Positions 26,919-57,048 of a stretch of DNA of 64,000 bases are shown piece after piece (position 1 is the stretch's first letter; each line of letters opens with the position of its first letter). The notes below the pieces were generated by a model. The model was not told the DNA's origin and made no database searches. It saw only the letters and a list, made by a program, of their open reading frames with translations. Origin of the DNA: a virus; the IMG/VR virus record IMGVR_UViG_3300046517_002960, positions 126,217 to 190,216 of that record; one strand, given 5' to 3'. A program made the position numbers and the translations under genes.

Positions 26919-26923
26919 CTTCA

Positions 26924-27383: not shown

Positions 27384-27387
27384 CCCG

Positions 27388-27475: not shown

Positions 27476-27497
27476 CTTCACACCGTGCTTCACACAT

Positions 27498-27575: not shown

Positions 27576-27576
27576 T

Positions 27577-27732: not shown

Positions 27733-27733
27733 T

Positions 27734-28309: not shown

Positions 28310-28387
28310 GATCTTCCGTTCCCGCTCCCTGCCCCTGACAACGTGTCACAGCGAAGATACGTTCAGTGAGTAGCCTTATGTAAGCAG

Positions 28388-28459
28388 GGTCCGCTAGCTC
28401 AACGGCAGAGCATCCGACTTTTAATCGGCTGGTTCAGGGTTCGAGCCCCTGGTGGACCA
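28388..28459 (+). tRNA. tRNA-Lys(TTT)
   Basis: GGTCCGC/GTGGACC; loop CTTTTAA. Confidence 0.9.
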
Positions 28460-28460
28460 C

Positions 28461-28664
28461 TCAGCCCCAGGACACCATCTGCGGGGCCGGGTGCTTGGTC
28501 CAGGTGTCGGCGAGCGCCGGGTGCGCGTGCTTGGTCCAGGTGTCGGCGACGGTCGCGTGATGCGGAGCGGGCGGGGTGCCCCAGGACACCATCGCGGCAC
28601 CGGAGCCCGTGGCAACGGCGGCTGCGAGGACGAGAGCGGCGATCCTGGCCTTGGCGGATTTCAT
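28461..28664 (-). CDS. Secreted 67-aa peptide with repeated ADTWTKH and MVSWG motifs
   Basis: GAAGG SD; Sec-type signal MKSAKARIAALVLAAAVA; internal DNA repeats. Confidence 0.7.
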   Translation of the reverse strand: MKSAKARIAALVLAAAVATGSGAAMVSWGTPPAPHHATVADTWTKHAHPALADTWTKHPAPQMVSWG

Positions 28665-28702
28665 AGCGTTACCTTCCCCGTTACTAGGTGTTCTCATAAC
28701 TG

Positions 28703-28730
28703 AGCGTACAGACCGGTCACAGCGTGTCAA
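28703..28730 (-). promoter_or_regulatory. Promoter for the peptide gene
   Basis: TTGACA-N16-TACGCT on the minus strand. Confidence 0.6.
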
Positions 28731-28734
28731 TAGC

Positions 28735-28763
28735 TTGCGCGGCACTTTCCGTAGCCGTAAGGT
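28735..28763 (+). promoter_or_regulatory. Promoter for the second tRNA block
   Basis: TTGCGC-N17-TAAGGT ending 9 nt before tRNA-Arg. Confidence 0.5.
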
Positions 28764-28771
28764 GACAGGAT

Positions 28772-28844
28772 GCGCCTGTAGCTCAAGGGGATAGAGTCTC
28801 GCCTTCTAAGCGAGGGGATGGGGGTTCGATGCCTCCCGGGCGCG
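28772..28844 (+). tRNA. tRNA-Arg(TCT)
   Basis: GCGCCTG/CGGGCGC; loop CTTCTAA. Confidence 0.9.
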
Positions 28845-28975
28845 CTGGGGACCCCGGCCTGCGAGGCGGCCCGTGAGCCGTCGCCGGCAGATCCGGCACC
28901 GGGGTCCTCAACTAGTCTCAGCTGAGATATCGCGTAGTAGCCTCTTGAGACATCGGTCATTGCTATACTGAAAAC

Positions 28976-29470
28976 ATGACCATGCCCACGCCGCACTTCT
29001 GCGACTGTGGATGTGGTGAGAAAACAGCTGTTGCCCCGAGGAATAATACGAAGCGGGGATACGTCAAGGGCTTGTCGTTCCGGTTCGTCGGACGGCATCA
29101 TGCCTGGAAAGGCGACGAGGCCAGCTATCGTGTCTTGCACACAGCTCTGAACCTGCACTACCCGAAGTCAGGCGTGTGCGAGGAGTGCGGCGCGGAAGCA
29201 GAGACCGAGTACTCACTGATTCATGGCCGTCAAGTGTCTCGGCGGCGCGAGGATTACAGGGAGCTCTGCAAACCCTGTCACCATGGTTACGACACGGGCG
29301 GGGAGCGCAGCCTGAACGCTAAGCTGACGGAAGCGAACGTGCGTGATCTCAGAGTGCGCTTCGATGACGGGCAAGGCGAGCCTATTGAAGTTCTTGCTCG
29401 CGAGTACGGCGTTTCTCCCGCGGCGGCTTACCGGGCTGCGACGCGCAAGTCCTGGCGTCACGTCGCTTGA
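28976..29470 (+). CDS. HNH-type endonuclease with C-terminal HTH, probably leaderless
   Basis: CDCGCG..WKGD..Y..LH..CEECG..DYRELCKPCH; TGcTATACT extended -10 just upstream. Confidence 0.85.
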   Translation: MTMPTPHFCDCGCGEKTAVAPRNNTKRGYVKGLSFRFVGRHHAWKGDEASYRVLHTALNLHYPKSGVCEECGAEAETEYSLIHGRQVSRRREDYRELCKPCHHGYDTGGERSLNAKLTEANVRDLRVRFDDGQGEPIEVLAREYGVSPAAAYRAATRKSWRHVA

Positions 29471-29506
29471 CGGATGTACCTGAAGATTGCTTCTGAACGC
29501 TTACAT

Positions 29507-29584
29507 GGTCCTGCAGGCCAGCCAGGAGTGGCCGTCTGCCCCTCAAGCAGGAGATCGCGGGTTCGAATCCCGCCAGGACTACCA
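29507..29584 (+). tRNA. tRNA-Glu(CTC)
   Basis: Loop CCCTCAA; encoded CCA. Confidence 0.9.
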
Positions 29585-29585
29585 T

Positions 29586-29660
29586 GGCCCCATAGTGCTA
29601 GCGGTCCAGGCCGCCTGCCTTTCAAGCAGGAGATCACGGGTTCGAATCCCGTTGGGGCTA
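29586..29660 (+). tRNA. tRNA-Glu(TTC)
   Basis: CCTGC-CTTTCAA-GCAGG. Confidence 0.9.
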
Positions 29661-29674
29661 CGGTGTAAATGCGA

Positions 29675-29746
29675 CGCGGAGGGTGCTAGGTCAACCAGCC
29701 AGGCTCATAACCTCGGCAAACGCGGGTTCAAATCCCGCCTCCGCTA
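29675..29746 (+). tRNA. Initiator-like tRNA-fMet(CAT)
   Basis: CGCGGAG/CTCCGCT with C1 mismatch; loop CTCATAA; lacks the full 3 G-C anticodon pairs. Confidence 0.7.
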
Positions 29747-29750
29747 CTAA

Positions 29751-29821
29751 GGTGCCCTGGAGCGTTTCCGGCTGACTACCGGTCGTCGCCCCGGGTTCGT
29801 CGCCGGGATCAGGGCACCCCA
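29751..29821 (+). ncRNA. D-armless tRNA-like element (GAC loop) ending in CCA
   Basis: GGTGCCCTG/CAGGGCACC; CCGG-CTGACTA-CCGG; CCCGG-GTTCGTCG-CCGGG. Confidence 0.5.
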
Positions 29822-29822
29822 G

Positions 29823-29894
29823 TCCCCCATAGCTCAATGGCAGTAGCGCCCGGCCGTTAACCGGTGGATCTTGGTTCGAGTCCAGGTGGGGGAG
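29823..29894 (+). tRNA. tRNA-Asn(GTT)
   Basis: TCCCCCA/TGGGGGA; loop CCGTTAA. Confidence 0.9.
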
Positions 29895-29907
29895 CGCAGA
29901 AACACAA

Positions 29908-29981
29908 GGTGGCGTAACTCAGCAGGTCAGAGTGCTGGACTGTCTATCCGGAAGTCGCGGGTTCGAATCCCGTCGTCACCG
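29908..29981 (+). tRNA. tRNA-Asp(GTC)
   Basis: GGTGGCG/CGTCACC; loop CTGTCTA. Confidence 0.9.
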
Positions 29982-30094
29982 CTAGCACCCAGTCCCTGGT
30001 GCTTGCCCGGAAGGTCTTCCGCACACTGCGCGCGGCAGCGGAAGCGCCTGGCCGGGGAACCCGCGACAGCGTAACAGCGGCGGATGGGACACAC

Positions 30095-30168
30095 GGTCGC
30101 TTAGCTCAGTTCGGGAGAGCGTCGTCCTGACGCGACGAAGGCCACTGGTTCAATCCCAGTAGCGACCA
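30095..30168 (+). tRNA. tRNA-Val(GAC)
   Basis: TCGTC-CTGACGC-GACGA. Confidence 0.9.
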
Positions 30169-30182
30169 CGCAGTACCAGCAA

Positions 30183-30255
30183 GTCCCCGTAGCTCAACGG
30201 ATAGAGCTGCTGCCTACGGAGCAGTGCGTTGCAGGTTCGAGTCCTGCCGGGGATG
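30183..30255 (+). tRNA. tRNA-Arg(ACG)
   Basis: GCTGC-CTACGGA-GCAGT. Confidence 0.9.
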
Positions 30256-30324
30256 CCAGCGGAGAGGTATCGGCAGTACCGTAAAGCCAGGTCACGTGCC
30301 CGAGGACCTGCGCCTCTCCGTCAA

Positions 30325-30400
30325 GGGCGGTTAGCTCAGCGGGAGAGCGCTGGGTCCACACCCCGGGACATTTGCGCCGGTTCGATCCCGGCACCGCCTA
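30325..30400 (+). tRNA. tRNA-Val(CAC)
   Basis: GGGCGGT/ACCGCCT; loop TCCACAC. Confidence 0.85.
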
Positions 30401-30402
30401 CT

Positions 30403-30474
30403 GTGGCCGTAGCTCAATGGTCAGAGCAACGGGCCGTGAACCCGAATATGCGCGTTCAATTCGCGTCGGCCACC
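30403..30474 (+). tRNA. tRNA-His(GTG), no encoded G-1
   Basis: GTGGCCG/CGGCCAC-C; loop CCGTGAA. Confidence 0.85.
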
Positions 30475-30476
30475 CC

Positions 30477-30560
30477 GGCAGGTTACCCAAGCGGACAAAG
30501 GGAGCTGTCTGTAAAACAGTCGGCATTACGCCTGCGCTGGTTCGAACCCAGCACCTGCCA
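30477..30560 (+). tRNA. tRNA-Tyr(GTA)
   Basis: GCTGT-CTGTAAA-ACAGT; long variable arm. Confidence 0.9.
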
Positions 30561-30561
30561 C

Positions 30562-30981
30562 ATGAACACGAAAACGAGAATCGGCCTGGACTACTGGCAG
30601 GTCTGCAGCCACTGGCCGTACTTCGGCGAGCTGGCGGCGGCCCTGCGGGCGGCAGGCCATGAGGTGCACGTCATCTCGGCGGTCGGCCGGAAATCCGCCG
30701 GCACCGTCGCGCCCGGGCTAGCTGAGCTCGGTATCGCCGTTGACGGCGTGCACGAGCGGCTGTTCCGCCATCCGCGGGAGTCGCCGCAGCTGAAGCTGGC
30801 CGCGTGCCGGGAACTGGGCATCGGGGTCTTCTACGACGACCGGCAGGACGTGACCGACCTGCTGAACGCGAACGGGATCCTGGCCCTGCGGGTGCCGCGG
30901 CGCCAGGCCGGGCTGTCGGACACTGAGGGAGAACGGCGGGGCTCGCCGCCGCGGGGTGATCGTGACCCGGCAGCCGTCTAA
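30562..30981 (+). CDS. HAD-superfamily-like protein (degenerate DxD)
   Basis: RIGLDYW..GHEVHVISA..KLAACRELGIGVFYDDR. Confidence 0.65.
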   Translation: MNTKTRIGLDYWQVCSHWPYFGELAAALRAAGHEVHVISAVGRKSAGTVAPGLAELGIAVDGVHERLFRHPRESPQLKLAACRELGIGVFYDDRQDVTDLLNANGILALRVPRRQAGLSDTEGERRGSPPRGDRDPAAV

Positions 30982-31046
30982 GGTCGTGACCCGGCTGAAC
31001 GAGAAAGACCCGCCAGCCTCAGGGCACAGCGGGCCGCAGTAAGCAG

Positions 31047-31120
31047 GACCCCATAGCTCAGCGGATAGAGCACCGCCCTCCGGAGGCGGGTTGTCGCAGG
31101 TTCGAATCCTGCTGGGGCCA
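31047..31120 (+). tRNA. tRNA-Arg(CCG)
   Basis: CCGCC-CTCCGGA-GGCGG. Confidence 0.9.
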
Positions 31121-31179
31121 CTGGCTGGCAGGTGAGCAGGCTGACACCGCCTTCGGGCTCAGCCCCCTGCCGGCCGTAC

Positions 31180-31255
31180 CGCCGAGTGACCGAGCTGGCT
31201 AGGTGAACGCCTGCAAAGCGTTTTGACACGGGTTCAAGTCCCGTCTCGGCGTCCA
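31180..31255 (+). tRNA. tRNA-Cys(GCA)
   Basis: AACGC-CTGCAAA-GCGTT; U73; encoded CCA. Confidence 0.9.
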
Positions 31256-31256
31256 C

Positions 31257-31330
31257 GACCCTGTAGCTCAGCCGGATAGAGCAGGCGCCCCCTAAGCGCT
31301 ATGTCGCGGGTTCGAATCCCCCCAGGGCCA
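31257..31330 (+). tRNA. tRNA-Arg(CCT)
   Basis: GGCGC-CCCCTAA-GCGCT. Confidence 0.85.
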
Positions 31331-31344
31331 CGTATGATGAGGAC

Positions 31345-31963: not shown

Positions 31964-32078
31964 GAAGACAAGCCCCCGCGGGCCGGAAGCGGAGCCGGTT
32001 ATCGCCAACCATCCAACACTGGTACCGCGGCCACGTGCCGCACCGGTTCCCGTCAACATGCCCGCGGGGCTTGCCTTC
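31964..32078 (+). ncRNA. Y-RNA-like unit 6
   Basis: Same core with extended closing stem; ends just before the rsr SD. Confidence 0.75.
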
Positions 32079-32103
32079 ACAGATCAGGAGGAGGAACACG
32101 ATC

Positions 32104-33756
32104 ATGACCAACGACGCGCTGACGCAGATCCGGACCCGGGGCCGGGCCACGCCGCAGTCCGAGCAGGCCCACCCGGCGCAGATCCGGAACGACGCAGGCG
32201 GCTGGGCGTTCCAGGCTTCCGACGAGACCCGGGTGCACCGGTTCCTGACCATCGGCACCACGGGCGGCACCTTCTACACCGACGAGCGCAAGGCGACGCG
32301 GGACAACGGCGAGCTGATCATCGAGTTCGCCCGGGCCAACGCGTCCCGGCTGGTCCAGATGGCCACTGAGGTGTCCGTCGCGGGCCGCGCGCCGCGCAAC
32401 CAGCAGGCGATCCTGGCCCTGATGGCCGCCATGGCCCTGGGGGACACTGAGGGCCGGCAGGCCGCGGAGCGTGCCTTCACCGACGTCGTGCGGACCGGCA
32501 CGCACCTGTTCACGGCGGCCAGGTACGCCGAGCAGTTCCGCGGCTGGGGCCGTATCGCCCGGCGCGCGTTCGCCCGGTGGTACCTGGACAAGGACGCCGA
32601 GCCGCTGTCCTACCAGCTGGTCAAGTACCGGCAGCGGGACGGCTGGACGCACCGTGACGTGCTCCGTTCCGCGCACTCCACCAGCGGCTGCGACGCCGCC
32701 CACGCGCAGCTGTTCGACTGGCTGTGCGGCCGGGAGGCGGACGGCGAGCGGCCGAAGTGGATCGCCGCGTACGAGCGCGCCCGGGAGATCGAGCGCGGCT
32801 CCGAGCCGGCCGGCGCCAGGACGGCTGCCTACGTGCGCCTCATCGAGGAGTACCCGGGCATCCCGTGGGAGGCGCTGCCGGACGAGGCCACCTCGCAGGC
32901 AGACGTCATGCGGGCGCTGATCGAGGCCGGCATGCCGGTCACGGCGCTGATCCGGAACCTGCCGAAGCTGACCCGGCTCGGCGTGATCGCCCCGATGAGC
33001 ACGCACCTGCGGCTCGTCACGGAGCGGCTGACCAACGCTGAGCTGCTGCGCAAGGGCCGGGTCCACCCGGTTTCCCTGATGGTCGCAGCCAAGGTGTACG
33101 CCTCCGGCCGGTCCGAGCCGCGCCCGAACAGGCCGGTAGTCACGTGGACCCCGGTGCCGCAGGTCTCCGACGCGCTGACCGGCGCGTTCTACGCCGCCTT
33201 CCCGGCGGTGGAGCCGGCCGGCAAGAGGACCATGGTCAACCTGGACATCTCGGGTTCCATGACCAGCTCGGCCGCGGGCTACTGCGTCTCGGCGCGGGAG
33301 GTCGTGGCGGGCATGGCCCTGGTGACCATGAACACCGAGCCGGCCTGGGGCGTGTACGGCTTCAGCACCCAGTTCATGCCGCTGCAGCTGTCCCCGGGCA
33401 TGCGGCTGGATGAGGCGATGCGGTACATGTCGCGACTGCCGTACGGCGGCACCGACGCCTCGCTGCCGATGCAGTGGGCGGCCCAGACCCGTACCGAGGT
33501 GGATGTCTTCCAGATCTCCACCGACTACGAGACCTGGGCGGGCTCCATGCACCCGCACGAGGCGCTGGAGAACTACCGCCAGAAGATGGGCATCAACGCC
33601 CGGATGCAGATGATCGCGGTCGCCCCGAACGAGTACTCGTTCTGGCCGCACTCCGCTCCGGGGTCCATCGCTGCCGACCTGGGCGTCCTGGACGTCAGCG
33701 GTTTCGACACCGACGTCCCGGTGCTCCTGGCCAACCACGCCCGGGGCGACATCTGA
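32104..33756 (+). CDS. rsr: Ro60 / TROVE-domain RNA-binding protein with vWA domain
   Basis: RNDAGGWAF..RFLTIGTTGGTFY; KYRQRDGWTHRDVLR; NLDISGSM (MIDAS); TDASLPM; TDYETWAG. Confidence 0.95.
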   Translation: MTNDALTQIRTRGRATPQSEQAHPAQIRNDAGGWAFQASDETRVHRFLTIGTTGGTFYTDERKATRDNGELIIEFARANASRLVQMATEVSVAGRAPRNQQAILALMAAMALGDTEGRQAAERAFTDVVRTGTHLFTAARYAEQFRGWGRIARRAFARWYLDKDAEPLSYQLVKYRQRDGWTHRDVLRSAHSTSGCDAAHAQLFDWLCGREADGERPKWIAAYERAREIERGSEPAGARTAAYVRLIEEYPGIPWEALPDEATSQADVMRALIEAGMPVTALIRNLPKLTRLGVIAPMSTHLRLVTERLTNAELLRKGRVHPVSLMVAAKVYASGRSEPRPNRPVVTWTPVPQVSDALTGAFYAAFPAVEPAGKRTMVNLDISGSMTSSAAGYCVSAREVVAGMALVTMNTEPAWGVYGFSTQFMPLQLSPGMRLDEAMRYMSRLPYGGTDASLPMQWAAQTRTEVDVFQISTDYETWAGSMHPHEALENYRQKMGINARMQMIAVAPNEYSFWPHSAPGSIAADLGVLDVSGFDTDVPVLLANHARGDI

Positions 33757-38093: not shown

Positions 38094-39195
38094 TCACCCC
38101 CCGGGCACGCTGGGTGACTGGCTGCCGGCCTGCCGCGCGAACAGCCCGGCGTAGGCGGCTTCCCACTGCTGCCAGTGGTCCTCGATCAGGTGCCGGCGGG
38201 CCATCTCCCGGGCCGCCTCGCCCATCTTGGCGCGCAGCGCGTCGTCGCCGGCCAGCTCGGACAGGTACTTCAGCCATTCGTGGTCGCGCTTCACCAGGAA
38301 GCCGTCGACCCCGTGGGTGATCACGGCCCGGTACGGCTCGATGTCGCTGGCGACGGTCGGGATCCCGCGGGCGCCGTACTCGATCGCCTTAATTGCCGAT
38401 TTACTTTTCGAAAACGAGGTGGGCCACAGCGGGGCCAGGCCGATGTCGAAGTTGATCCCGGCGAAGTACTTCTCCGGGTGCTTGTAAACCGGCACCCAGC
38501 CGATGTAGGACATCCGGTCGTACGGCACGCCCTCGTCCCCGAAGGTCTCCCGGTAATCCGAGCCGTTCAGCTGCAGGTCCCAGCCCGGAAACCGCTTGAG
38601 GAACCGGTGGACCGGCGATGCCACCTGGCCGATGTCGACGCCATGGCTCGCGCCGCCCTGCCAGCCGACCCGCGGCCGTTTCCGGCCGGGCCGCGGCAGC
38701 CGGGTAGCCCAGCCCGGGACGCAGTTAGGCAGCACGGCAACCCGGTCGTGCCCGGCTACCTCGCGCATTACCCGCGCCAGCGGCTCGGTGGTGACGGTAA
38801 CCAGGTCGGCGGTCTCGGCGGCGTGCTGGGTCGCATCCCGGATCTCCGGGCGGCCGTACAGGTGGTAGGCGTTCCAGTTCTCGGCCGTCACGTTCCACAG
38901 GTCGTCATCGAGCTCGTAGACCAAGCGGCTGAACGGGCCGCGGGCGCGCCGCCACACATGCAGCCCGTCGTGCTTGTTCCACCGCTGCGCCACGATCACG
39001 TCATAGCCCGCCAGGTCGCCCAGGGTGACCGAGACCGGGTGACCGTCATCGCCGGCGTCGGTGAAATGCACCTCGTGCCCGCCGTACCGGGCCAGCGCGT
39101 CCAGGGGTGCTTTCATGCGATACCAAGCCTAAAGCGCACCCCGAGCCGCCATCGTGCCCGGCGAAAATCTTCAAGGGTGCAGGGTTCACCGGCAT
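38094..39195 (-). CDS. GT-B (GT4-like) glycosyltransferase interrupted by a 7-nt TTA-containing gap (39132-39126); about 364 aa when joined
   Basis: GAAGGAG SD; MPVNPAPLKIFAGHDGGSGCA + WYRMKAPL..; DIGLAPL..KSAIKAIEYGARGIP.VASD. Confidence 0.85.
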
Positions 39196-39308
39196 GTTAC
39201 CGCTCCTTCCGCTCTACACATCAACTTGGCATCCCGGATGCCGTGCATCTGCAGCCAGCTGTAGGCACACCCTGAACCGCCATCATGTCCAGCGAAGATT
39301 CTAATCAG
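39186..39308 (-). other. 40-codon ORF beginning with a synonymously recoded copy of the GT N-terminus
   Basis: IRIFAGHDGGSGCAY versus LKIFAGHDGGSGCA; GAGGGAG upstream; start codon CTG or ATT uncertain. Confidence 0.55.
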
Positions 39309-39333
39309 GGGACTCCCTCGCTAAGCTGGCGCC

Positions 39334-39576
39334 ATGAGTGCCATGCCAGGTGATAACAGGGCCAGGGACGCCTACGGCGACTGGTGCGCGCAGATGGGCG
39401 GCGTTGATGCCGATGGCCGGGTACTGCGCCGCTGGGAGCAGCTGAACGGCCAGGAGCGGGCCGCGTGGGAGACCGTGATCGAGAACGCCGGGCTGGCCGC
39501 CGCCCGGGCCGCCGACCGGGTGAACCAGGCGGCGGCCGGGGCGCCGGGCTGGCCGCCGCCCGCGGAACTGCGCTAG
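39334..39576 (+). CDS. Hypothetical protein
   Basis: ARDAYGDW..WEQL..ERAAWE; high GC3. Confidence 0.6.
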   Translation: MSAMPGDNRARDAYGDWCAQMGGVDADGRVLRRWEQLNGQERAAWETVIENAGLAAARAADRVNQAAAGAPGWPPPAELR

Positions 39577-39579
39577 CCC

Positions 39580-39903
39580 TCACGGCCGCTCCCGGTCGGC
39601 CAGCGCGGCCAGCCGCGCCCGCTCGCGCTGCAGGTACCAGATGGCCTTGGCCAGGTCGGTGTCCGCGTCCGCGCCGGGCTTGAGCCCGTGCCGCCAGGCG
39701 TACTTGACGGCGCTGCCGACATTGAACGACATCGCCTCGGTGACGTCGATGCACTCGATCTGCTCGCCGCAGCCGTGGCACTGCGCGCCGAGGCTGCCAT
39801 AGTGCGCCGGGTGGCTGACCTGCTCGCCCTGCCCGGGCTGGCCCGTGTCGTCCGTGACGGACGTGACGGGCTGCAGCATCGTCGCGGGCCGCGGATCGTT
39901 CAT
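39580..39903 (-). CDS. DUF3310-family protein
   Basis: VSHPAHY..IECID..FNVGSAVKY.WR..DLAKAIWYL. Confidence 0.85.
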   Translation of the reverse strand: MNDPRPATMLQPVTSVTDDTGQPGQGEQVSHPAHYGSLGAQCHGCGEQIECIDVTEAMSFNVGSAVKYAWRHGLKPGADADTDLAKAIWYLQRERARLAALADRERP

Positions 39904-40169
39904 GGCCGCAGCAGCGCGTTCGCCGGGGTGGCGACCAGCAGGCCGGACCCGCCGAGGGAGTCGCCCAGCTCACGGATCAGCCCGGCCCAGGCCAGGATGT
40001 CGGCCTTGGGCAGCTGGAGGGTCAGCGTGGTGGTCGGGGTCCGGACGGTGAGCACCCCGAGCGCGCCGCTGACCCCGGTGAACAGCTGGGCCGGGCCGGG
40101 AGCCAGCAGCGTGTTGGCCTCATCGACTACCGGCGGCAGCCCGGCGTCCGGGGCGGCGGGCATGGACAT
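39900..40169 (-). CDS. Hypothetical protein
   Basis: GGAGG SD; LTVRTPTTTLTL. Confidence 0.6.
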   Translation of the reverse strand: MSMPAAPDAGLPPVVDEANTLLAPGPAQLFTGVSGALGVLTVRTPTTTLTLQLPKADILAWAGLIRELGDSLGGSGLLVATPANALLRP

Positions 40170-40182
40170 GATCAGCCTCCGT

Positions 40183-40875
40183 TCACGTAACGGGCCGGGC
40201 AGTAACAGGAGCGCGCCCGGCGCCGGGCTGGCCTTCTGGCACGGGGTCCCAGCCGGGGCCGCGCCAGACCGAGGGCCACGCGTCGCAGGTGTCAGCCTCC
40301 ACCCGGACGTAGCCGATCCCGGCGCGGAGCCAGGCCCAGACCAGCTCCCAGTCCTCGTACGCCCCGCCCGCCCACGCCGCGACCTCCGTGAGCCCCGCCC
40401 GGTGCATGATCATCGGCGTGCCGACGTTACCCAGCGCCAGCTCGCCGTGCCCGACCGACTGGTCGCCGTGCGGGGCGTGCTGGAGCATCCGCGACACAGC
40501 GAACCCCGCCTCCGGGTGAGCGTCCAGCGCGGCGGCCAGCCGGTAGCAGTGATCCGGGCGCAGCGAGTCGTCGTCATCGCAGTAGGTGACGTACTGCCCG
40601 GCCACCAGTCCGAGCCCGGCGTTGCGGACCGCGCCGCCCCAGTGCGGTTCCTCGTCGTGCGCCGGCAGCGCGTGGAACCACAGGTCCTTCCAGCCGTGCA
40701 GCCACGGCATCGACAGGTCCGCGGCCAGCTGCGGGTCCGGGCCGTCGCTGACCACGATGTGCTCCACCCGGGGGTAGCCCTGAGCCTGGACGCTCGGGAT
40801 GCACCGGGCCAGCAGCAGCTGGCGGCGCTGCCAGGTCGGCGTGATCACCGATACCAGCGGCATCTCATCCGTCAC
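40183..40875 (-). CDS. GT2 glycosyltransferase
   Basis: LVSVITPTWQR, HIVVSDG, RNAGL, YCDDDD, EDWELV. Confidence 0.9.
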   Translation of the reverse strand: MTDEMPLVSVITPTWQRRQLLLARCIPSVQAQGYPRVEHIVVSDGPDPQLAADLSMPWLHGWKDLWFHALPAHDEEPHWGGAVRNAGLGLVAGQYVTYCDDDDSLRPDHCYRLAAALDAHPEAGFAVSRMLQHAPHGDQSVGHGELALGNVGTPMIMHRAGLTEVAAWAGGAYEDWELVWAWLRAGIGYVRVEADTCDAWPSVWRGPGWDPVPEGQPGAGRAPVTARPVT

Positions 40876-41029
40876 GGGACCGCCTCCGGGCCGGCTTGAA
40901 GATGCGGACCCGGACCCGCCAGGCCGCGATGTAGAGCGCGTCGTGCCCGCGGAACAGCAGCCGCCACCGGGACCGGTCCGACAGCCAGACCCGGTGCCGC
41001 TGCTTCCCCCAGCTCGCGAGGGTGGTCAT
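40865..41029 (-). CDS. Hypothetical Arg/Trp-rich protein
   Basis: 54 aa, coupled to neighbours. Confidence 0.5.
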   Translation of the reverse strand: MTTLASWGKQRHRVWLSDRSRWRLLFRGHDALYIAAWRVRVRIFKPARRRSRDG

Positions 41030-41289
41030 CCCGTCACCCGCCGCCCGGTGATGACGGGCCGCGCGCCCTCTTGCGCCGGCAGGGCCAGGACCAGCTCCAC
41101 CCGGCGGCCGTCCAGCTCCGGCGGCGCGCCGGCGTCGGTGAACCGGTGCCAGTGCGCCACGGATTCCGTGCCCAGGTAACCCGGCTCCGGGCAGATGCCC
41201 TCGTTCAGCACCAGCCCCTCCGGCAGCAGGTCAGGGTCGAGGTCCGCGGCCAGCGCGTCGGAGACCAGCACCCAGTACGTCGTGGTCAC
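41026..41289 (-). CDS. Hypothetical protein
   Basis: GTGA coupling; YWVLVSD..WHRFTDAGAP. Confidence 0.6.
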   Translation of the reverse strand: MTTTYWVLVSDALAADLDPDLLPEGLVLNEGICPEPGYLGTESVAHWHRFTDAGAPPELDGRRVELVLALPAQEGARPVITGRRVTG

Positions 41290-41603
41290 AGCAGGTCCTC
41301 CGGGGGCAGCGCGTCCAGCCAGACAACCCGCGGCGGCTCGCGGGCGACGTCGCACTGATCATGGTCGTGCGCCCCCCGGCGGTGGCTGCCCGACCAGTGC
41401 GGCCGGCCTGACGCGTCCAGGGCATAGCAGAAGACCCGCGCCACGGGCATGTCGCCGTCGCGGGCGTAGAACTCGGCCCGGTACATCCTGTGCACGGGCA
41501 GGGCGTGCGCCTTCAGCCAGGCGGACCGCTGCCGGGACGGCCCGCGGAACCAGTCAGCATCCGTGGCGTCCCAGACGGCTACCGGGATCACGGTCTCAGC
41601 CAT
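41286..41603 (-). CDS. Hypothetical protein
   Basis: 105 aa, high GC3. Confidence 0.6.
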   Translation of the reverse strand: MAETVIPVAVWDATDADWFRGPSRQRSAWLKAHALPVHRMYRAEFYARDGDMPVARVFCYALDASGRPHWSGSHRRGAHDHDQCDVAREPPRVVWLDALPPEDLL

Positions 41604-41625
41604 GACGGCCCCCAGTACGTGACGC

Positions 41626-41805
41626 TCACGGTGGCTCCCAGGGCCACTCGTCGCACGGCCCGTCGTGGCCGTAGGGCTGCTCGCAGATCGCGGCGTGCCG
41701 CTGCGTCAGGCAGTGCTCGCACCACCGGATGTCCGGGCCGGCCAGGGCGCGCTGCCCGCAGTCCGCGCACCGGATCTCGATCTTCCAGCCGTACGGCACG
41801 CTCAT
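41626..41805 (-). CDS. Zn-finger protein
   Basis: CADC..CEHC..CEQPYGHDGPC. Confidence 0.55.
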   Translation of the reverse strand: MSVPYGWKIEIRCADCGQRALAGPDIRWCEHCLTQRHAAICEQPYGHDGPCDEWPWEPP

Positions 41806-42176
41806 TCCCATAGCCGCCCCGGGCGCTTCGGCTTGACCGGCGGGTGCCAGTTCCCGGTCGCCGGGTCGTGATCCAGCATCCAGCCGACGTCCCCGGTATC
41901 CGGGTCGTACCACCAGTACCGGCCGCACGGCGAGCAGTGCCCGGCGACCGGCGCGTCCTCCATGTCCACGTGCCGCATCGCGTCGCGGTGCACCGGGCAG
42001 AACCCCTCGGCGACCGCGGCGACCTCATGGGCGTACTGCGCCCGGTACGCGGCCAGCCGCTGCTCCACGCCGTCCCCGGCGAGCACGTGCACCGAGCCGG
42101 GCGCCAGCGGCGGCCTGCCGCGGGTGACGCTCTCCGCGCACTGCGGGACCCGCTCAGGCGGGCCGGCGCAGCTCAT
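41802..42176 (-). CDS. Zn-ribbon protein (CPxH..CGRYWW)
   Basis: Paralog of 42173..42409. Confidence 0.6.
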   Translation of the reverse strand: MSCAGPPERVPQCAESVTRGRPPLAPGSVHVLAGDGVEQRLAAYRAQYAHEVAAVAEGFCPVHRDAMRHVDMEDAPVAGHCSPCGRYWWYDPDTGDVGWMLDHDPATGNWHPPVKPKRPGRLWE

Positions 42177-42409
42177 GATGACTCCCCTCGCGACGGCATC
42201 GGCGTCCCGGCGAACGGGGACCGGGCGCTGAACGAGCCGGCCTGGCTGGTGCCGGGGTCGTGCCACCAGTACCGGCCGCAGGCGGCGCAGAGCCCGCCCG
42301 TGCTGTCGTCGCCGGTCCCGGCCCGGCTCAGCGGCGTGCCGTGCGCCGGGCAGGTCCCGGCGGCGAGCGCGGCAGCGATGTCGTCCGCGGGCGGGCGCGC
42401 GGTCACCAT
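42173..42409 (-). CDS. Zn-ribbon protein (CPxH..CGRYWW)
   Basis: Paralog of 41802..42176. Confidence 0.6.
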   Translation of the reverse strand: MVTARPPADDIAAALAAGTCPAHGTPLSRAGTGDDSTGGLCAACGRYWWHDPGTSQAGSFSARSPFAGTPMPSRGESS

Positions 42410-43149
42410 GGCTGCCACCCGGGGATGGCCAGCCCGTTGTTGAAGGCGTCCAGCCGCTCCGCGGTGAACGGGTGCCCGCCCAGCTTGGCGATGTCGGCGT
42501 TGAGGCCGCCGGGCGCGCCGTCGTCCAGGCCCCGGCGCGAGTAGGCGTGCCAGGCGGCCAGGCCGGACCCGGTGAGCGCGAGGCTGCGCGCGTAGGTCTC
42601 GTCGTGCGGCGCCCCGGTGGTGTAATGGTGATGCGGCAGCAGCACGCTGGCCAGGAACTCGTGCCCGCAGGCCAGGCACCAGGCGTACCAGGCGACGTCC
42701 ACGAACATGTGGGCCAGTTCCGGCGGCCCCATGTAGCCCAGGGTCTCGATGACCTCGGTGCGCATGAAGATGTGGCAGGACAGCGAGCCCGGCGCGCGGA
42801 ACGGGTACAGGTCGTTGCCGAACGCGAACGGCTGCCGCTCCAGCGCGGCCAGGATGGCGGTGTCCCAGCCGTCGCTGGAGCAGGTGTTGTCATCGCCCAC
42901 GGTGCCCACCGCGGCGTAGGCGCCCAGGGTCAGCAGGGCCAGGTGGTTGACCCAGGCGGTGACGTAGCGCAGGCCGTCCCGGATGACGTAGCCCGGCCCG
43001 GCGGGATAGCTGTCCCGGCTCGGGTCGTCGGCGTCCAGGCCGATCAGCAGCTGGGTGGGCGCGGTGCAGGTGCGGCGCATGGACTCCCACAGCCGCGCCG
43101 CGCCGGCCGGGCGGCCCCGGGACGGCACCAGCAGCCCGAGCTCGCTCAC
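42403..43149 (-). CDS. GT-A fold glycosyltransferase
   Basis: LLVPSRGRP, LDADD, GDDN, LAHMFVD.AW. Confidence 0.85.
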   Translation of the reverse strand: MSELGLLVPSRGRPAGAARLWESMRRTCTAPTQLLIGLDADDPSRDSYPAGPGYVIRDGLRYVTAWVNHLALLTLGAYAAVGTVGDDNTCSSDGWDTAILAALERQPFAFGNDLYPFRAPGSLSCHIFMRTEVIETLGYMGPPELAHMFVDVAWYAWCLACGHEFLASVLLPHHHYTTGAPHDETYARSLALTGSGLAAWHAYSRRGLDDGAPGGLNADIAKLGGHPFTAERLDAFNNGLAIPGWQPW

Positions 43150-43814
43150 GGCAGGCTCCGGTCATGCCAGCGGAACGCCGGGCTGCCCACCGCGGGGCGC
43201 GGGCAGGCGGGTACCGGGCGGGCTCCCGGCGCGGACCACTGCCGGTGGCCGTCCGCGGTGCTGGAGTAGTACAGGTACAGCACCCGCGGGATGTACTCGT
43301 CGGCGTGCAGCAGGTGGGCGATCTGCCCGCGGAAGTCGTAGTCCTCGCCGAGCTCGCGGCACGCGCGGAAGTCCCCCTTGCGGGCGATCGCGGCCCGGAC
43401 CGGGTTGAGCAGGGTCCAGTCCCGGTAGGCGCCGCCGCTGTCCGCGGCCCACTGGCGGGTGAAGCGCAGGCTGTGGAACGCCAGCTGGACCGGCTCGCCG
43501 TCCTCGAAGACGCGGACCTGGAAGCCGACCGCCTCAGTGGCGGGGTCGCCCATGGCCATGATCACCGTGTAGACGAAGTCCGGGACGACCAGGTCGTCGT
43601 CATCGATGAAGCTGATGAACTCGCCGCGGGCGTCGTCCAGCAGTGCCTGGCGGATCTCGGTCAGCGGCGCGCTGCCGTCATTCAGCAGGGCCACCACTTC
43701 CACCCCGGGCACCGCCTCGGCCTGCGGCAGCAGCACCGCGAGCAGCCGCAGCAGCGCCGCCTGGCGGGTGGCCAGGGTAGGGATCAGGATGGACCACTGC
43801 AGCGCCGCGCTCAT
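43146..43814 (-). CDS. GT2 glycosyltransferase
   Basis: WSILIPTL, ARGEFISFIDDDD, GEDYDF. Confidence 0.85.
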   Translation of the reverse strand: MSAALQWSILIPTLATRQAALLRLLAVLLPQAEAVPGVEVVALLNDGSAPLTEIRQALLDDARGEFISFIDDDDLVVPDFVYTVIMAMGDPATEAVGFQVRVFEDGEPVQLAFHSLRFTRQWAADSGGAYRDWTLLNPVRAAIARKGDFRACRELGEDYDFRGQIAHLLHADEYIPRVLYLYYSSTADGHRQWSAPGARPVPACPRPAVGSPAFRWHDRSLP

Positions 43815-44164
43815 GTCAGGATCGGCACCGCCAGCCGCTGCGTGTCGCTCTCGTAGGCCGCCGCCGAGCGCGGCCCGCGGGTGAACACCAGCACGACGGT
43901 GTCCTCCAGGGCCTTCCAGGCGTGCGGGATGCCGGCCTGCTCGGTGACCAGCTCACCCGGCCCGCGGACCTGCATGTGCACGCCGTCGTCCTCGGTCCAG
44001 GCCACCTGCATCAGCCCGGATACGATGTAGGTCCACTGGGTGGTCTGCAGGTGGACGTGGTTCCCGCGCACGCTCCCGCGCCGGGTCCGGATCTCGGTGA
44101 TCGCGTCGATGTTCTCCAGCAGGTCCTGGATGACGCCGCGGTCGTCTTCGTGCCTGCTAGCCAT
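43811..44164 (-). CDS. Cupin-fold sugar isomerase/epimerase (FdtA/WxcM-like)
   Basis: EDDRG, RGNHVH, PHAWKALED. Confidence 0.75.
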   Translation of the reverse strand: MASRHEDDRGVIQDLLENIDAITEIRTRRGSVRGNHVHLQTTQWTYIVSGLMQVAWTEDDGVHMQVRGPGELVTEQAGIPHAWKALEDTVVLVFTRGPRSAAAYESDTQRLAVPILT

Positions 44165-45284
44165 TCCAGAGCCTCGCACGGGGGAGGGGGACGATGAACT
44201 TGCCGTCGTAGCCGGACGCGCGCAGCTTCGGCACGATGTCGGCGGCGACGTGCCAGGCCAGCAGCAGCGCGTGCGGCGGCTGGTTCTCGGCCAGCTCGCG
44301 CTCATCCACCACCGCGATGCTCGTGCCGGGCAGCAGGGTGCCGATCTTGTCCGAGCCGCGGACCTCGCAGATCCGGTCGATGTAGGACTCGATGCCGGCC
44401 CAGTGCAGCAGCGGGGTGGCCCGGGTGGACGCGGAGATCCCGTAGATCGCCCCGGCCCCGGCCGCGGCCTCCATGGCCCGGCACAGGTACCCGCGGGCGG
44501 CGTCGGCGCGGACCTGCAGCCCGGGCCGCTGCTGCACGGCGACGGCGCGGAACGAGCCGCCGTGCACCGGGATGCGGTCCAGCGCCCTGATCAGGAACCC
44601 GTGCATGGACAGCACGTAGCCGAGCGAGGCGGGGGAGTAGTAGCGCAGGTGCTCGTGGTAGACGGTGTCGACCTGCAGCTCGTCCACCACCGAGGCCCAG
44701 TCGTGGTTCTCGGTGATGAACAGGCCGCCCTCGTCCAGCGCCTCGGCCACCCCGGACAGGAAGTCGTGCTGGTCGCCGGCGTGCGCGAGCACGTTGCACG
44801 CGACGATCACCCTGGCCCGGCCGAGGTAGCGCGCGATGTCGCGGGCCAGCTTCCGGGACCAGAACGCCCGCTCCACCGGGATGCCCCGGCCGCTGGCCCT
44901 GGCGGCCTGCCCGGTCGGCTCCACCGCCAGCACCCGGGCGTGCGGCGCGTGGCGGCGGACCGCCTCGAGGAACGTGCCGTCGTTGGCGCCGATGTCGATC
45001 ACCAGGTCGCCAGGGCGCAGCTCGGCCGCGACCAGGGCAGCCAGGTCATCGAAGTGCCTGCGCAGCGCGGCGGTGTTGCCGGTGGTGTACGGGTGCCCGG
45101 GCGGGAACACCACGTCCCGGTCCACCGCGTAGGTGAGCTGGGCCAGCCCGCACTGGGCGCACTCGGCGACCTGCAGCGGGTAGCGGCCCCCGTCGTCCCG
45201 CTCGGCCAGCGGCTGCTCCCCCATGTCCAGCACGGCCTTCAGCCGGGGGTCCCCGCAGGTCGCGCAGGCGGTTACCTTACTCAC
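44157..45284 (-). CDS. NDP-hexose C-methyltransferase
   Basis: C..CG..LDMG.QPLA, DIGANDG, YHEHLRYY, HGGSFR, YG.S.RA, GKFIVPLP. Confidence 0.9.
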   Translation of the reverse strand: MSKVTACATCGDPRLKAVLDMGEQPLAERDDGGRYPLQVAECAQCGLAQLTYAVDRDVVFPPGHPYTTGNTAALRRHFDDLAALVAAELRPGDLVIDIGANDGTFLEAVRRHAPHARVLAVEPTGQAARASGRGIPVERAFWSRKLARDIARYLGRARVIVACNVLAHAGDQHDFLSGVAEALDEGGLFITENHDWASVVDELQVDTVYHEHLRYYSPASLGYVLSMHGFLIRALDRIPVHGGSFRAVAVQQRPGLQVRADAARGYLCRAMEAAAGAGAIYGISASTRATPLLHWAGIESYIDRICEVRGSDKIGTLLPGTSIAVVDERELAENQPPHALLLAWHVAADIVPKLRASGYDGKFIVPLPRARLWNG

Positions 45285-46242
45285 CGTCGTGCTCCCGGTA
45301 CCAGGCAGCGGTATGCGCCAGCCCGTCCGCGAACGGCGTCACCGGCAGGCTGCCCCCGGCCAGGGCGGCGATCTTGGCGGTATCCGGGAGCCGCCGCGGC
45401 GGGCTGCCCGGCGGCAGCGAGCCGGGCTCGACCTTGATCTCCCGGCCCCAGCAGGCCGCGACCGCGTGCGCGACCTCGGTGATCGTCTTCTCGTCTCCGG
45501 TGCCGACGTGGTAGATGCCGCCGGGGGCATCCGGCCGGGCCAGCAGCATCAGCTGGTCGGCGCAGTCCCCGATCCAGCAGAACGAGCGGGTCTCGGCCCC
45601 GCTGCCCTGGATCGGGAACGGCAGGACGCCGTGCGGCTGGGCCGCGGCCAGCCGGGCCATCCGCAGGCAGAACTCCGGGATCACGTGCTCGCGGCCCATG
45701 TCCGGGCCGTAGATGTTGTGCGGCCGGGCGATCACCGCGCGGTCCAGCACGCCGGCCCGCTGCCAGGCCAGCACCGCGAGCTCGCACGCGATCTTGCCGC
45801 CGCCGTAGGAGTACCGCGGGTTCAGCGGGTCCGGCACGGTGAGCGGCACCGTCTCCGGCGTCGGCACCGCGGGCGCCACCTGGTAGGCCTCGGAGGAGGA
45901 CACCAGCACCAGGTCGCCGCACCCGGTCGCCGCGCACGCGTCCAGCACGGCCAGGATCCCGCGCAGCGCGGTGTCCAGCACGGCCCGCGGCTCGGCGTAG
46001 AACGTCTGGGTGCCCTGCACGTACGCCAGGTGCCAGGCCTGGTCGCAGCCCTGCATGGCGCGGATCACGTCATCGCGGTCGCGGACGTCGCCGCTGACGA
46101 TCTCGATCCCGGCGGACCGCAGCCGGTCACGCCGCCCGCGGCTGAAGTCGTCCAGTACCCGGACCTGGTGCCCGGACTGCGTCATCTGCCGGGCCAGCGC
46201 GGATCCGATGAACCCGGCGCCGCCCGTGACCAGGGTCTTCAA
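45277..46242 (-). CDS. NAD-dependent sugar epimerase/dehydratase
   Basis: TGGAGFIG, SSSEAY, YGGGK, RPHNIYG; GGAGG SD before TTG. Confidence 0.9.
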   Translation of the reverse strand: MKTLVTGGAGFIGSALARQMTQSGHQVRVLDDFSRGRRDRLRSAGIEIVSGDVRDRDDVIRAMQGCDQAWHLAYVQGTQTFYAEPRAVLDTALRGILAVLDACAATGCGDLVLVSSSEAYQVAPAVPTPETVPLTVPDPLNPRYSYGGGKIACELAVLAWQRAGVLDRAVIARPHNIYGPDMGREHVIPEFCLRMARLAAAQPHGVLPFPIQGSGAETRSFCWIGDCADQLMLLARPDAPGGIYHVGTGDEKTITEVAHAVAACWGREIKVEPGSLPPGSPPRRLPDTAKIAALAGGSLPVTPFADGLAHTAAWYREHDGE

Positions 46243-51659: not shown

Positions 51660-53215
51660 TCAATGCCTCCCATTGCTGCCATGGCCGTTGAGCACCAGGT
51701 CCTGCCGCGACGGGATCCACGCCCCGACGAACTCCGGCGGGCTGGCCTGGACGTGCGCCCGAGCCCTCCGGCGCGTCTCCAGGAAATCGAGGATGAGCTG
51801 GGCATCCTCGCGTTCTTCGCGGGTCGCGCCGTAGTGGCGCTGGGACGCGATGATCTGGCCGAGCTCCTGCTCAGCGGACGGCACCTGGGGGACCGCACCC
51901 GGCGTCGGCTCGGCCAGCCCCTGCTTGGCCAGCTGCTGCAGCTTGTCCGCGGCCAGGTCCATCTCCAGGTCGATCGACGGCTCCATCGACTTGGGGATGC
52001 CGCGGATCGACCGGGCCATCGCGACCATGACTTCCAGCGGGATGAACTCGTTGCCGGCCCCGCCGGGCAGCGGCTCGAGGTCTTCCAGGTCACGGATCTC
52101 ATCGACGCTGCGCAGGCCCATCTCCCGCTGCGCGTGGTAGATCTCTGTCCGCGTCTTCAGGTCCGTCTTCAGCAGGGCATCGGAGTTGAAGCGGCAGTAC
52201 CGGTTCTGCGGCAGCAGCTGGAAGAAGGCCGTTTCCAGTCTCACCAGCCACGGACGCAGCGCCTCGATCACCTGCAGGGTGCTCTGCTCCACTGTGTTGT
52301 AGGTGAGGCTGTCGCCGCGGGTGCCACCGATGCGGTCCGGGGGGAGGTTGAGGATGGAGGCGATCTGCGTGGCGTTCATGCGCAGCGCCTCGATGAACTG
52401 GCTCTCGCTCGGCGGCACGACCACCGGGGAGTACTTCCAGTCGCGGCCGTAGACCAGCGGCTCGCGGCGCCGGATGGTGGCGGTGAGCATGGACCGGATC
52501 TCCTCGGCCTGCTCGCGCGTGATCTCGATCTCGGTATTCTCGAACGTCCCGGGCGGGAAGCCCCCGGCGAGATACCAGTCCGTGCCGTAGCGCTCGGCTT
52601 CCAGGCCGGACAAGATGGTCAGCGCGAACGCGCGCAGCGGGGAGATGCCCTCCATCCGGCCCGGCAGGCTGAACGCCCTGATGTGGAACAGCTCGGAACG
52701 GTCCATCAGGCGGCCGTAGCAGTAGATCCGGGTGCGCAGCGGATTGAACGGCTGCGCCTGGTCCGGCACGACGTCAACGTCCTCGGGCGGCATCCACTCG
52801 ATCGACCGCGGCAGCCCGTAGCCGTCCCGGGAGGTGATCAGGCCCCAGGCATTGCCCTGCAGGAGCAGGCTGGACATGCACTGGAACAGCCAGTCGAACA
52901 GGGTGCCGTCGATGCTGGGCTGGTCGAAGATGGACGGGCCGTCGTACCGGCGGGTGCGCTGGTCGCCGCTGCCGGGCTTGAGGTAGATCTTCAGCGGCAG
53001 CGCGGCGGTGGAGTTGGCCAGCAGCGACACGCCGGAGTACAGCGCGGGCAGCGCGAGCGCCCGGTCAGTGCCGAAGAACGCCCGGGAGGGATGCACCGGG
53101 CCGCCCGTATCGAACTTCCGGGTAACCAGTAGGGATTATCCCAGGGCCTCCACGGCACCCCGCCGATCGCCCGGGCCTCTGTACGGCTCGCGCGTATCTT
53201 CTCGATCAATCCCAT
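51660..53215 (-). CDS. Portal protein interrupted by an 8-nt TTA-containing gap (53125-53118); about 515 aa when joined
   Basis: MGLIEKIR..WDNPYW + KFDTGGPVHPSR..; LLLQGNAW, HIRAF, QIASILNLPP, LTYNTVEQ, LRPWLVRLE. Confidence 0.9.
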
Positions 53216-55351: not shown

Positions 55352-57048
55352 TCAACCCACTGATTTCAGGGGGTCGTAGCTGTACCGCTTCCTGTTCAGC
55401 CCCCACAGCGCGTCGGTGCCGGAGCTGACCGGGGTGATGTCCGATTCGCTGTCGCGGCGGGACCAGGCCCGGCCGCCGTCGCCGACGTCGCGGGTCTCCG
55501 CGCTGGCCACCGCGCTGTGCAGCCCGGGAGCCTGCTCGCGGCCCAGGTGGATGAGCCGCTGGTGCGGGTCCGGGTGCCGGGCGGTCGTGACGAACAGCGC
55601 GAACGCGGCGGCCTCGTCGGCGGAGCTCATCGCGGTCACCTCGATGCCGGCCTTCTCCAGGTCCGGGATCAGCGCGGCGGCCGGGCCGTTCTTCGGCACC
55701 ACGACGGCGGCCGGCTTCCAGGCCCGCTTCAGCCGCAGCAGCTCCGGCACGACCCACCTGGCGCCCTCCCGGTGGCAGCCGCGCGGGATCTCGATGACCG
55801 GCCGCTGCCTGCCGTCCGGGCCGGGCCGGTACCAGCAGGCGGAGATCGCGGCCGAGAGCATGTCCGGGTCGATGTCGACGGCGAACACCACCGGCCGGGT
55901 GGCGCCGCCGGGGTCAGCCATGGCGCAGGCCTGCCAGGACTCCTCGCTGATCACCGCCCAGGCCTCGTCGCCGGCCGGCCAGTCTCCCACTCCCAGCCGC
56001 TCGCGGTCGAACGTGTTCCCCAGGGTCATCGCGGCCAGCTCGTGCGCGACGTGGTCCGCGGAGATCCGCACGCCGAGCGCGGGGTTGGCCTTAGCCCAGG
56101 CCCGCGGGTCGTCCCGGTCATCGTGCAGCGCGCAGGTGATGTACCGGTTGGTTTTCCGGCCGCGGATCTCGTCGCGGGAGCAGGTATCGAGGTGCGGGTT
56201 GATGCTCCACTCGGCGCCCATCAGCCGCGGGTCGCGCTGCAGCACCCGGCGGCGCACCGAGGCGAGCTGGACGCTGTCCTTGTAGCCGGCGCTGGCCGTG
56301 TAGATGACCTGCGGGTTCGGCACCGCGGACAGGGTGGGCAGGGACGCGCCGACCACCTCGTCGGACAAGATCATCGCCTCGTCGTAGACCACCGTGTCCG
56401 CGGTGAAGGCCCGGCCGGAGCCGCGGGAGCGGGCCAGGAACCGCAGCCGCCCCGCGACGTTGCGGCGGATGCGCCGCCCGCCGGGGCCGAAGATCAGCGT
56501 CGACTTGGGCTTGAGCTCGATCGCCTCGTCGCCGTGGGACGTGGTGACCGCCTTGACCCGGCGGCGGAGCTCGTCGTAGGCGGTCACCACGTCCCGGACC
56601 CGGCGGAAGTGCTCGGCAGCGGCCTTGAACTCAGTAATTCGTGGGCTGTATGGATAATCATCGATTCTCCGAACAAAAACAGCCCAGCGAGTTCCCTCAC
56701 CTCCAGACATGTGTTCTTGCCGTTCTGCCGGCTGAGGACCAGGTAGTTCTCGAACGACGCCCAGCGCCCGTCCGGGCGGGTGCCGCACAGCTCGGTCAGG
56801 AACCAGCCCTGCCACGGGTCCAGCTCGTAGCCGAAGTTCGGCGCCCACCCGAGCATGTCGGCGGAGGTGCGCTCGCCGCACCCGGCCCGGTAACCGGGAT
56901 CGGCGCAGGCCGGGCAGTCCGCGGCCTTGTCCCGGTGCCGCGCCGGCGCGGTCCAGAACCGGGGCGCCTGGCCGCCGAGCGCGTCGGCGCCGCGCAGCAC
57001 GGAGCCGTCTGGCAGCCAGACATCGCCGATAACGGACAGCGCGGACAT
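55352..57048 (-). CDS. terL: Terminase large subunit interrupted by an 8-nt TTA-containing gap (56637-56630); about 562 aa when joined
   Basis: Walker A LSRQNGKNT and IIHTAHE in one frame; FKAAAEHF, Walker B VVYDEAM, ANPALG and nuclease AVDIDPD in the -1 frame. Confidence 0.92.

Follow-up and report, generated by a model that had tools for sequence, protein, structure and literature searches.

A TTA-led 8-nucleotide insert in the terminase gene of an uncultured soil actinophage, probably read by translational bypassing

How does a phage make its large terminase subunit from a single gene whose two halves lie in different reading frames? The question is raised by the terL gene of one IMG/VR entry (IMGVR_UViG_3300046517_002960), a single virus record of 190,216 bp and 71% GC. 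We studied it in a window, the whole stretch of 64,000 nucleotides at positions 126,217 to 190,216 of that record, and all coordinates below are those of the window unless stated otherwise. The source is an uncultured soil actinophage of ~190 kb; CheckV estimates the completeness of the record at 90%, and IMG/VR classes it as a provirus. Only one terL copy is present, followed by genes for the portal, head protease/capsid, a connector protein and a glycosylation cassette. An earlier note had proposed that ribosomes bypass a short stretch inside this gene, hopping from one Glu codon to another. The elements of the gene are as follows.

56638..57048, minus strand: terL segment 1, from ATG 57048 to the take-off GAA (137 codons), with the Walker A motif SRQNGKN and ending ...IIHTAHE
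56638..56640, minus strand: putative take-off codon GAA (Glu), which would be in the P site as UUA arrives in the A site
56635..56637, minus strand: TTA (UUA), a rare "hungry" codon
56633..56637, minus strand: the putatively skipped bases TTACT (n=5), which with the landing codon make up the 8 nt absent from uninterrupted homologues
56630..56632, minus strand: putative landing codon GAG (Glu), synonymous with GAA
56627..56629, minus strand: resume codon TTC
55352..56629, minus strand: terL segment 2, from TTC 56629 to TGA 55354-55352 (425 codons), the remaining ATPase and the nuclease
56584..56586, minus strand: 0-frame stop TGA, met if UUA is decoded

The ATG at 57048 sits 14 nt 3' of a GGAGG. 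Frame A carries Walker A and later ...GESMIIHTAHE, and the minus-strand junction reads CAC GAA TTA CT GAG TTC (56640-56627 from GAA on). If UUA is decoded, frame A adds ELLSSRPLPSTSAGSGTW and meets its TGA 17 codons past TTA, giving a protein of 154 aa (P0001). Frame B (-1) is open from upstream of the site to TGA 55354-55352; its junction reads EFKAAAEHFRRVRD..., followed by 425 open codons (EFKAAAEHFRR...; P0002). The layout drawn by the earlier note is exact on the minus strand: a Walker A frame from 57048 to IIHTAHE, continuation of the ATPase and nuclease in the -1 frame from TTC 56629, and a dead-end ORF of 154 aa at 56584..57048 that closes at TGA 56586-56584. Both halves match PHROG 9 (terminase large subunit; 5.7e-17 and 1.3e-42), and a Pfam search of each half returned no match. 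A Walker A ATPase N-domain, a nuclease C-domain and adjoining portal and head genes place the product in the TerL family (PHROG 9; actinophage Terminase_1-like clade). The only in-frame TTA in terL, as read by eye, is the one at 56637. TTA occurs at ~0.5 per 1000 codons in the high-GC3 ORFs of the record, a rough ORF set that possibly includes false ORFs; a crude record-wide scan for frame changes at TTA was confounded by high-GC3 antisense frames and missed the terL site.

A database search yielded more than 1,200 terL relatives, the closest of which are 85-89% identical and 556-600 aa long; the closest TerL of a cultured phage is <40% identical. IMG/VR contigs bearing relatives of this terL reach 210 kb, and at least 10 of them exceed 100 kb. 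In 15 full-length homologues aligned with the joined product, ...IIHTAHE abuts FKAAAEHF with zero residues missing or added, so that the joined protein is collinear with its family and none of the homologues needs a residue encoded in the gap; such a need is what the earlier note had named as fatal to its proposal. Insert-free homologues at 85-89% identity read HTAH-EFK with nothing in between, and HTAHEFK is strictly kept in 108 of the 110 readable homologues. At the DNA level, a canonical relative has CAC GAG TTC where the window has CAC GAATTACT GAG TTC, that is, 8 nt extra. The terL gene thus carries an 8-nt frame-breaking insert relative to its uninterrupted homologues.

The insert is present in nature. 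Contigs from four soil or rhizosphere metagenome runs (four studies, 2020 and 2023) span 56579-56950 with 0 gaps and 0-2 substitutions, and 4 recorded contigs encode the exact 154-aa dead-end protein; the 8 nt are therefore no sequencing error. The Logan contigs of all four runs break within a stretch of 50 nt (56538-56587), 45-90 nt downstream of the gap, which suggests co-occurring variants or related phages in the samples.

We consider it probable that terL is expressed by UUA-triggered translational bypassing, with a peptidyl-tRNA-Glu hop from GAA to GAG. The ribosome would read 137 codons to GAA and then meet UUA, a codon that this 71%-GC phage hardly uses and that its actinomycete host presumably decodes slowly or not at all, leaving an empty A site. 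Peptidyl-tRNA-Glu(UUC) would unpair from GAA, the mRNA would slide by 8 nt, and the tRNA would re-pair on GAG. Decoding would restart at UUC and give a TerL of 562 aa with the canonical junction ...IIHTAHE-FKAAAEHF... and the junction peptide ...IIHTAHEFKAAAEHFR, and decoding of UUA would lead to the 154-aa dead-end product. A hairpin 5' of the take-off codon and a small hairpin over the gap may assist the hop. At terL the grammar is codon X-TTA-N-synonym of X, here GAA-TTA-N2-GAG. What the sequences show is the insert and its reality, the collinearity of the joined protein, the grammar, its recurrence and persisting purifying selection; the hop, its efficiency and any use of the site as a sensor of host tRNA-Leu(UAA) are inferred from them. 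The site may be regulatory, as proposed for the terminase gene of Streptomyces phage phiHau3, or merely tolerated.

The record also holds the following genes:

23744-31331, plus strand: array of 38 tRNA genes
29586..29661, plus strand: phage tRNA-Glu(UUC), which can read GAA and GAG
32035-33756, plus strand: 573-aa ORF matching PHROG 850 "RNA-binding protein" (7e-79)
38094-46242, minus strand: sugar cassette amid the virion genes, with four glycosyltransferases, a nucleotide-sugar epimerase and an NDP-hexose C-methyltransferase (Methyltransf_13/14)
G000:C1:50084-50599 (outside the window), plus strand: SpoU-family (SPOUT) methyltransferase ORF of 171 aa (Pfam PF00588, 49 bits)

The take-off (56640-56638) and landing (56632-56630) codons both specify Glu, and the single tRNA-Glu(UUC) that the earlier note had invoked for both is encoded by the phage itself. 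The Leu species of the array are CAA, GAG and CAG, without Leu(UAA) and Leu(UAG). The array also holds an odd tRNA-His with anticodon ATG beside a normal one with GTG. Two candidate tRNA enzymes did not hold up: the 375-aa methyltransferase at 44157-45284 is a sugar C-methyltransferase, and assignment of the SpoU-family ORF as TrmL is unsupported, with no NCBIfam model matched. A search of the record for a tyrosine or large serine recombinase found none, and no integrase. Ten small ORFs flanking terL were searched and show neither a homing endonuclease nor any recognisable family; a T4 mobA-like cassette at terL is accordingly unsupported.

Breaks at the same codon boundary occur in other lineages. 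They were found by searching with the N-terminal fragment and then fetching the contigs. GAA TTACT GAG recurs identically on five contigs, assembled from separate samples, of a 60% GC phage (L024/25/26) whose N-terminal part is only ~52% identical at the aa level. Locus L031 reads GAG TTACC GGG TTC, with the geometry of the window, and L023 has a 7-nt insert, CAT TTAGTAC GAA TTC. L027-30 (18 contigs) and L112 carry a 2-nt insert in a run of five T, GAG TTT TT AAG or AAA. An in-frame 9-nt form, GAA TTA CCT GAG, encodes HTAH-ELP-EFK in two genes that are mutually 83% identical (L001, which is P0016, and P0025) and differs from the window form by one C. Off-frame tails as expected of the insert types end four further proteins (P0127, P0177, P0130 and P0167), P0127 and P0167 being known from protein alone; P0014 and P0025 are likewise known from protein rather than DNA, and P0115 was left out, being cut by a contig end.

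All frame-breaking forms read in DNA (the window, L024-26, L031, L023, L027-30 and L112) place TTA directly after the putative take-off codon in the 0 frame and offer a landing codon, cognate or near-cognate, from which the canonical protein would continue: GAA to GAG, GAG to GGG, CAU to UAC and UUU to UUU. Inserts of 2, 7, 8 and 9 nt thus lie at one His/Glu-Phe boundary, and all start with or create TTA. The insert-bearing genes are a small minority: 64 of 64 IMG/VR relatives with a readable junction are canonical, as are the window's nearest relatives, so that there is no clade-wide conservation, and a mutational hot spot could fit the distribution too. An identical 8 nt in lineages 52% apart, absent from close relatives, may reflect lateral spread or repeated precise loss elsewhere. 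Loss of one nucleotide could have turned the in-frame 9-nt form into that of the window, or the change may have run in the opposite direction. Genome, viral and metagenome collections were scanned for the exact pattern GAATTAC(N)TGAGTTCAAGGC; apart from L001, the only matches were chance ones in unrelated low-GC organisms.

Several further features were observed at or near this boundary. Locus L105 reads GAG TTT AAA GAC ~435 nt into its locus ORF, with one extra A after EFK and without TTA; a +1 slip site (AAA G), a pseudogene and an assembly error are each conceivable. At several gap sites (L023, the L024 portal gene, window 39126-39135, L027 and L112), G or A commonly comes after TTA, which creates an overlapping stop codon (UAG/UAA) in the +1 frame. 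An intein at the Walker A lysine (GKN/C) is apparent in P0047, L040, L050, L062, L063, L075, L077, L079, L083, L087 and L106; that of P0047 is confirmed by LAGLIDADG/Hom_end Pfam domains, and those of the L-numbered loci are deduced only from tblastn matches that are over-long or begin at residue 112. Inteins were rejected as the cause of the site studied here, as those of the relatives lie at GKN/C, ~25 codons upstream of the hop site. P0177 has an HN/C intein end upstream of an ELLSSR tail, which suggests an intein and an 8-nt gap in one gene.

TTA-led breaks were also found in other genes of the window phage and of the 60% GC phage:

53118-53128, minus strand: portal break TGG TTA CC CGG, an 8-nt TTA-led insert (DNA read from 53128 to 53115, including AAG)
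39126-39135, minus strand: glycosyltransferase break GCT TTA G GCT, TGG next, a 7-nt insert (read from 39135 to 39123)
L024:5044-5055: portal break of the L024 phage, CAA TTA G CAG, CCG next

The window portal gene runs from ATG 53215 to ...NPYW and continues as KFDTGGP... from AAG 53117. Joined, its parts are collinear with the intact L001 portal (NPYW/KFDTGGP, upstream ...WDNPYW, against NPFV/KFSIGGP), and its landing codon CGG agrees with TGG at positions 2-3 only. The broken glycosyltransferase gene consists of ORF 38094-39116 and a start farther upstream, at ATG ~39195; immediately before it (39300-39250), a paralogous stretch without an insert reads GHDGGSGCA-Y. The L024 portal joins as VPWQ/PWNSPSF against VPWR/PWDNPF in L001, and a 9-bp hairpin (fold z = -2.7) has its gap in the loop. 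Across the 5.5 kb of L024, called genes contain in-frame TTA only twice, as the two gap leaders, one in terL and one in the portal gene. Two essential virion genes with the same grammar in two unrelated phages are hard to square with decay.

The split genes appear to be under selection. In two split lineages, variants differ at 8 terL positions, in the frames that a hop predicts; 6 of these differences are synonymous and 2 conservative (V/I and F/L). Since only ~1/4 of random changes are expected to be synonymous, this small sample points to purifying selection that persisted after the insert arose.

An inactivating mutation would account for the same locus in another way: terL, the portal gene and others would be pseudogenes in a decaying provirus, and the boundary would be a hot spot for small AT-rich insertions. 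The provirus class given by IMG/VR and the rarity of split forms among relatives agree with this, and loss of one C from the CC of the in-frame 9-nt variant could make the window form. Decay does not, however, lead one to expect identical 8 nt in a lineage only ~52% identical, or four insert lengths that each come with TTA and a matching landing codon. Both halves of the gene are open, with a polymorphism after the insert that is mostly synonymous, and the grammar is shared by the portal gene, the glycosyltransferase gene and a second phage. The phage is moreover present in four runs over years, in a record without another terL. We therefore regard decay as unlikely. The earlier note had argued that TerL is essential and that a simple pseudogene is thus improbable; the provirus class weakens this argument a little, and recurrence and the broken portal gene strengthen it.

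Other recoding or RNA repair, namely, a -1 or +2 frameshift with added residues (e.g., HTAHEL-EFK), transcriptional slippage or an mRNA from which the 8 nt have been removed, is in our judgment quite improbable. The net shift is -1, and the 2-nt type, GAG UUU UUA AGG, is similar to an HIV-like slip site (U UUU UUA). The window site itself, however, is missing the slippery heptamer X XXY YYZ: in C GAA UUA, a -1 shift would set GAA on CGA and UUA on AUU. Transcriptional slippage would find no homopolymer there. In the +1 frame, UAC is followed by UGA within the gap, so that a +1 slip would be unproductive. Added residues are disfavored by HTAHEFK in 108/110 homologues, although the ELP variant shows some tolerance. 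Assembly of an active enzyme from the 154-aa Walker A fragment and a C-terminal fragment begun at the frame B ATG at 56710-56708 is very improbable, for although frame B is open upstream of the junction, that ATG has no convincing ribosome-binding site before it, the cut would fall inside the ATPase core, and in L023 and L027 frame B is shut by TAG/TGA at the junction, with the first start at least 12 codons into conserved sequence. The collinearity of the joined protein, the lack of a slippery -1 motif, the UGA of the +1 frame in the gap and the match to the phiHau3 grammar together support the bypass reading first put forward in the earlier note.

If terL is read by bypassing, RNA structure may contribute to it. 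Two structures are predicted:

56642..56686, minus strand: predicted 5' hairpin with an 8-bp stem, arms UGGGCUGU (56686-56679) and ACAGCCCA (56649-56642)
56627..56640, minus strand: predicted mini-hairpin GAAUU(ACUG)AGUUC, which joins the take-off and resume codons

The 5' stem is predicted to finish 1 nt before the take-off codon, and the rare synonymous codons GGG and ACA complete it. Stem cells are paired in 87.5% of cases in seven insert-bearing lineages versus 58.5% in 22 canonical genes, the latter being the level of the slid control. The difference stems from synonymous choices, with the rare Thr codon ACA in 4/7 insert-bearing lineages and 0/22 canonical genes. Two-sided covariation of the 5' stem was looked for and none was seen; the register of L023 is shifted. 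The fold z-score of the window structure is only -1.6, and as a hop signal the 5' hairpin is suggestive only. The mini-hairpin across the gap is a weak candidate. The phiHau3 g6/g7 sites are also predicted to fold into hairpins around the gap. An SD-like GGAGGUGA was rejected as a specific signal, as it lies ~65 nt upstream and is present in canonical genes too.

It is tempting, though we lean against assuming it, to take a wider view of these sites. TTA-led gaps may form a recurrent, perhaps laterally spreading class of mini-inserts in soil actinophages of 60-71% GC, with at least 4 forms (2, 7, 8 and 9 nt) at one TerL boundary and with synonymous changes that build a hairpin behind the ribosome. 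Occurring in several essential genes of one phage, they could make virion production a readout of UUA decoding by the host. Annotators of high-GC phage metagenomes should bear in mind that terL and portal genes that look "frameshifted" may be intact. The 8-nt and 2-nt forms could serve as compact cassettes to test how a hop is driven when the A site is empty at UUA.

To our knowledge, natural translational bypassing has been described in only a handful of systems, namely, T4 gene 60 with its relatives, Magnusiomyces mitochondria and terminases of the phiHau3 type. In T4 gene 60, a 50-nt gap is bypassed from GGA to GGA, with a stop codon in the A site. The window site resembles it in having matched take-off and landing codons and a slow A-site codon (a stop in T4), and differs in that its gap is 5 nt rather than 47 and its A-site codon is a sense codon. 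Here, there is also no known nascent-peptide signal and no homing endonuclease adjoining terL, whereas the T4 insert has been linked to a mobile element (bioRxiv 10.1101/2022.08.31.505936). In T4, mRNA structure plays a part both at the take-off site and 5' of it, and refolding of a hairpin behind the ribosome has been discussed as a driver of forward movement (bioRxiv 10.1101/2024.12.09.627546). Low-level hopping at hungry or unassigned codons has been described in E. coli (works cited as refs 47-52 in PMC10732093). These hops are likewise short, use matched codons and are provoked by an empty A site; they are adventitious and inefficient, in contrast to a site on which an essential gene would depend and whose sequence recurs in nature.

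The closest likeness is to the phiHau3 type. Bypass of two UUA-led 10-nt inserts in the phiHau3 terminase gene, with UUA in the A site, was proposed by Smith et al. 2013 (J Bacteriol 195:4924) and received experimental support from Antonov et al. 2023 (PMC10732093), by immunoblots in Streptomyces and by mass spectrometry in E. coli on a UAA variant. The prophages StrepC.1 and S. catenulae were each reported to have one UUA-led gap, and such gaps were present in 3 out of 100 ter genes in a survey (PMC10732093). Our literature search for further UUA-led gaps in phages found no other paper. The phiHau3 gaps, which we re-read from NC_018836, are GGC-TTA-CTCC-GGT-AAG and TCT-TTA-ACGG-TCC-ACG, that is, codon X-TTA-N4-synonym of X. 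In both systems, a TTA-led frame-breaking insert that is rare among relatives separates two stretches of an actinophage terL that uninterrupted homologues have side by side. Both also have synonymous codons for take-off and landing (GGC/GGT and TCT/TCC there, GAA/GAG here), an early 0-frame stop and predicted local hairpins. They differ in TerL clade and in position, the window site lying at HTAHE/FK after the strand that follows Walker A and the first phiHau3 site in the P-loop at GWG/KD. The shift is 8 nt here and 10 or 7 nt there, and the uncultured phage of ~190 kb with 38 tRNA genes contrasts with a temperate siphovirus of 50 kb. Several insert lengths occur here at one site across lineages, where bypassing is predicted from sequence. 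The phiHau3 type has so far rested on three genes, to which this site would add an independent TerL clade, another position and a shorter gap. Relative to the published cases, the comparative evidence is new in its inserts in diverged lineages, its synonymous-biased polymorphism, its predicted 5' hairpin and its portal gaps.
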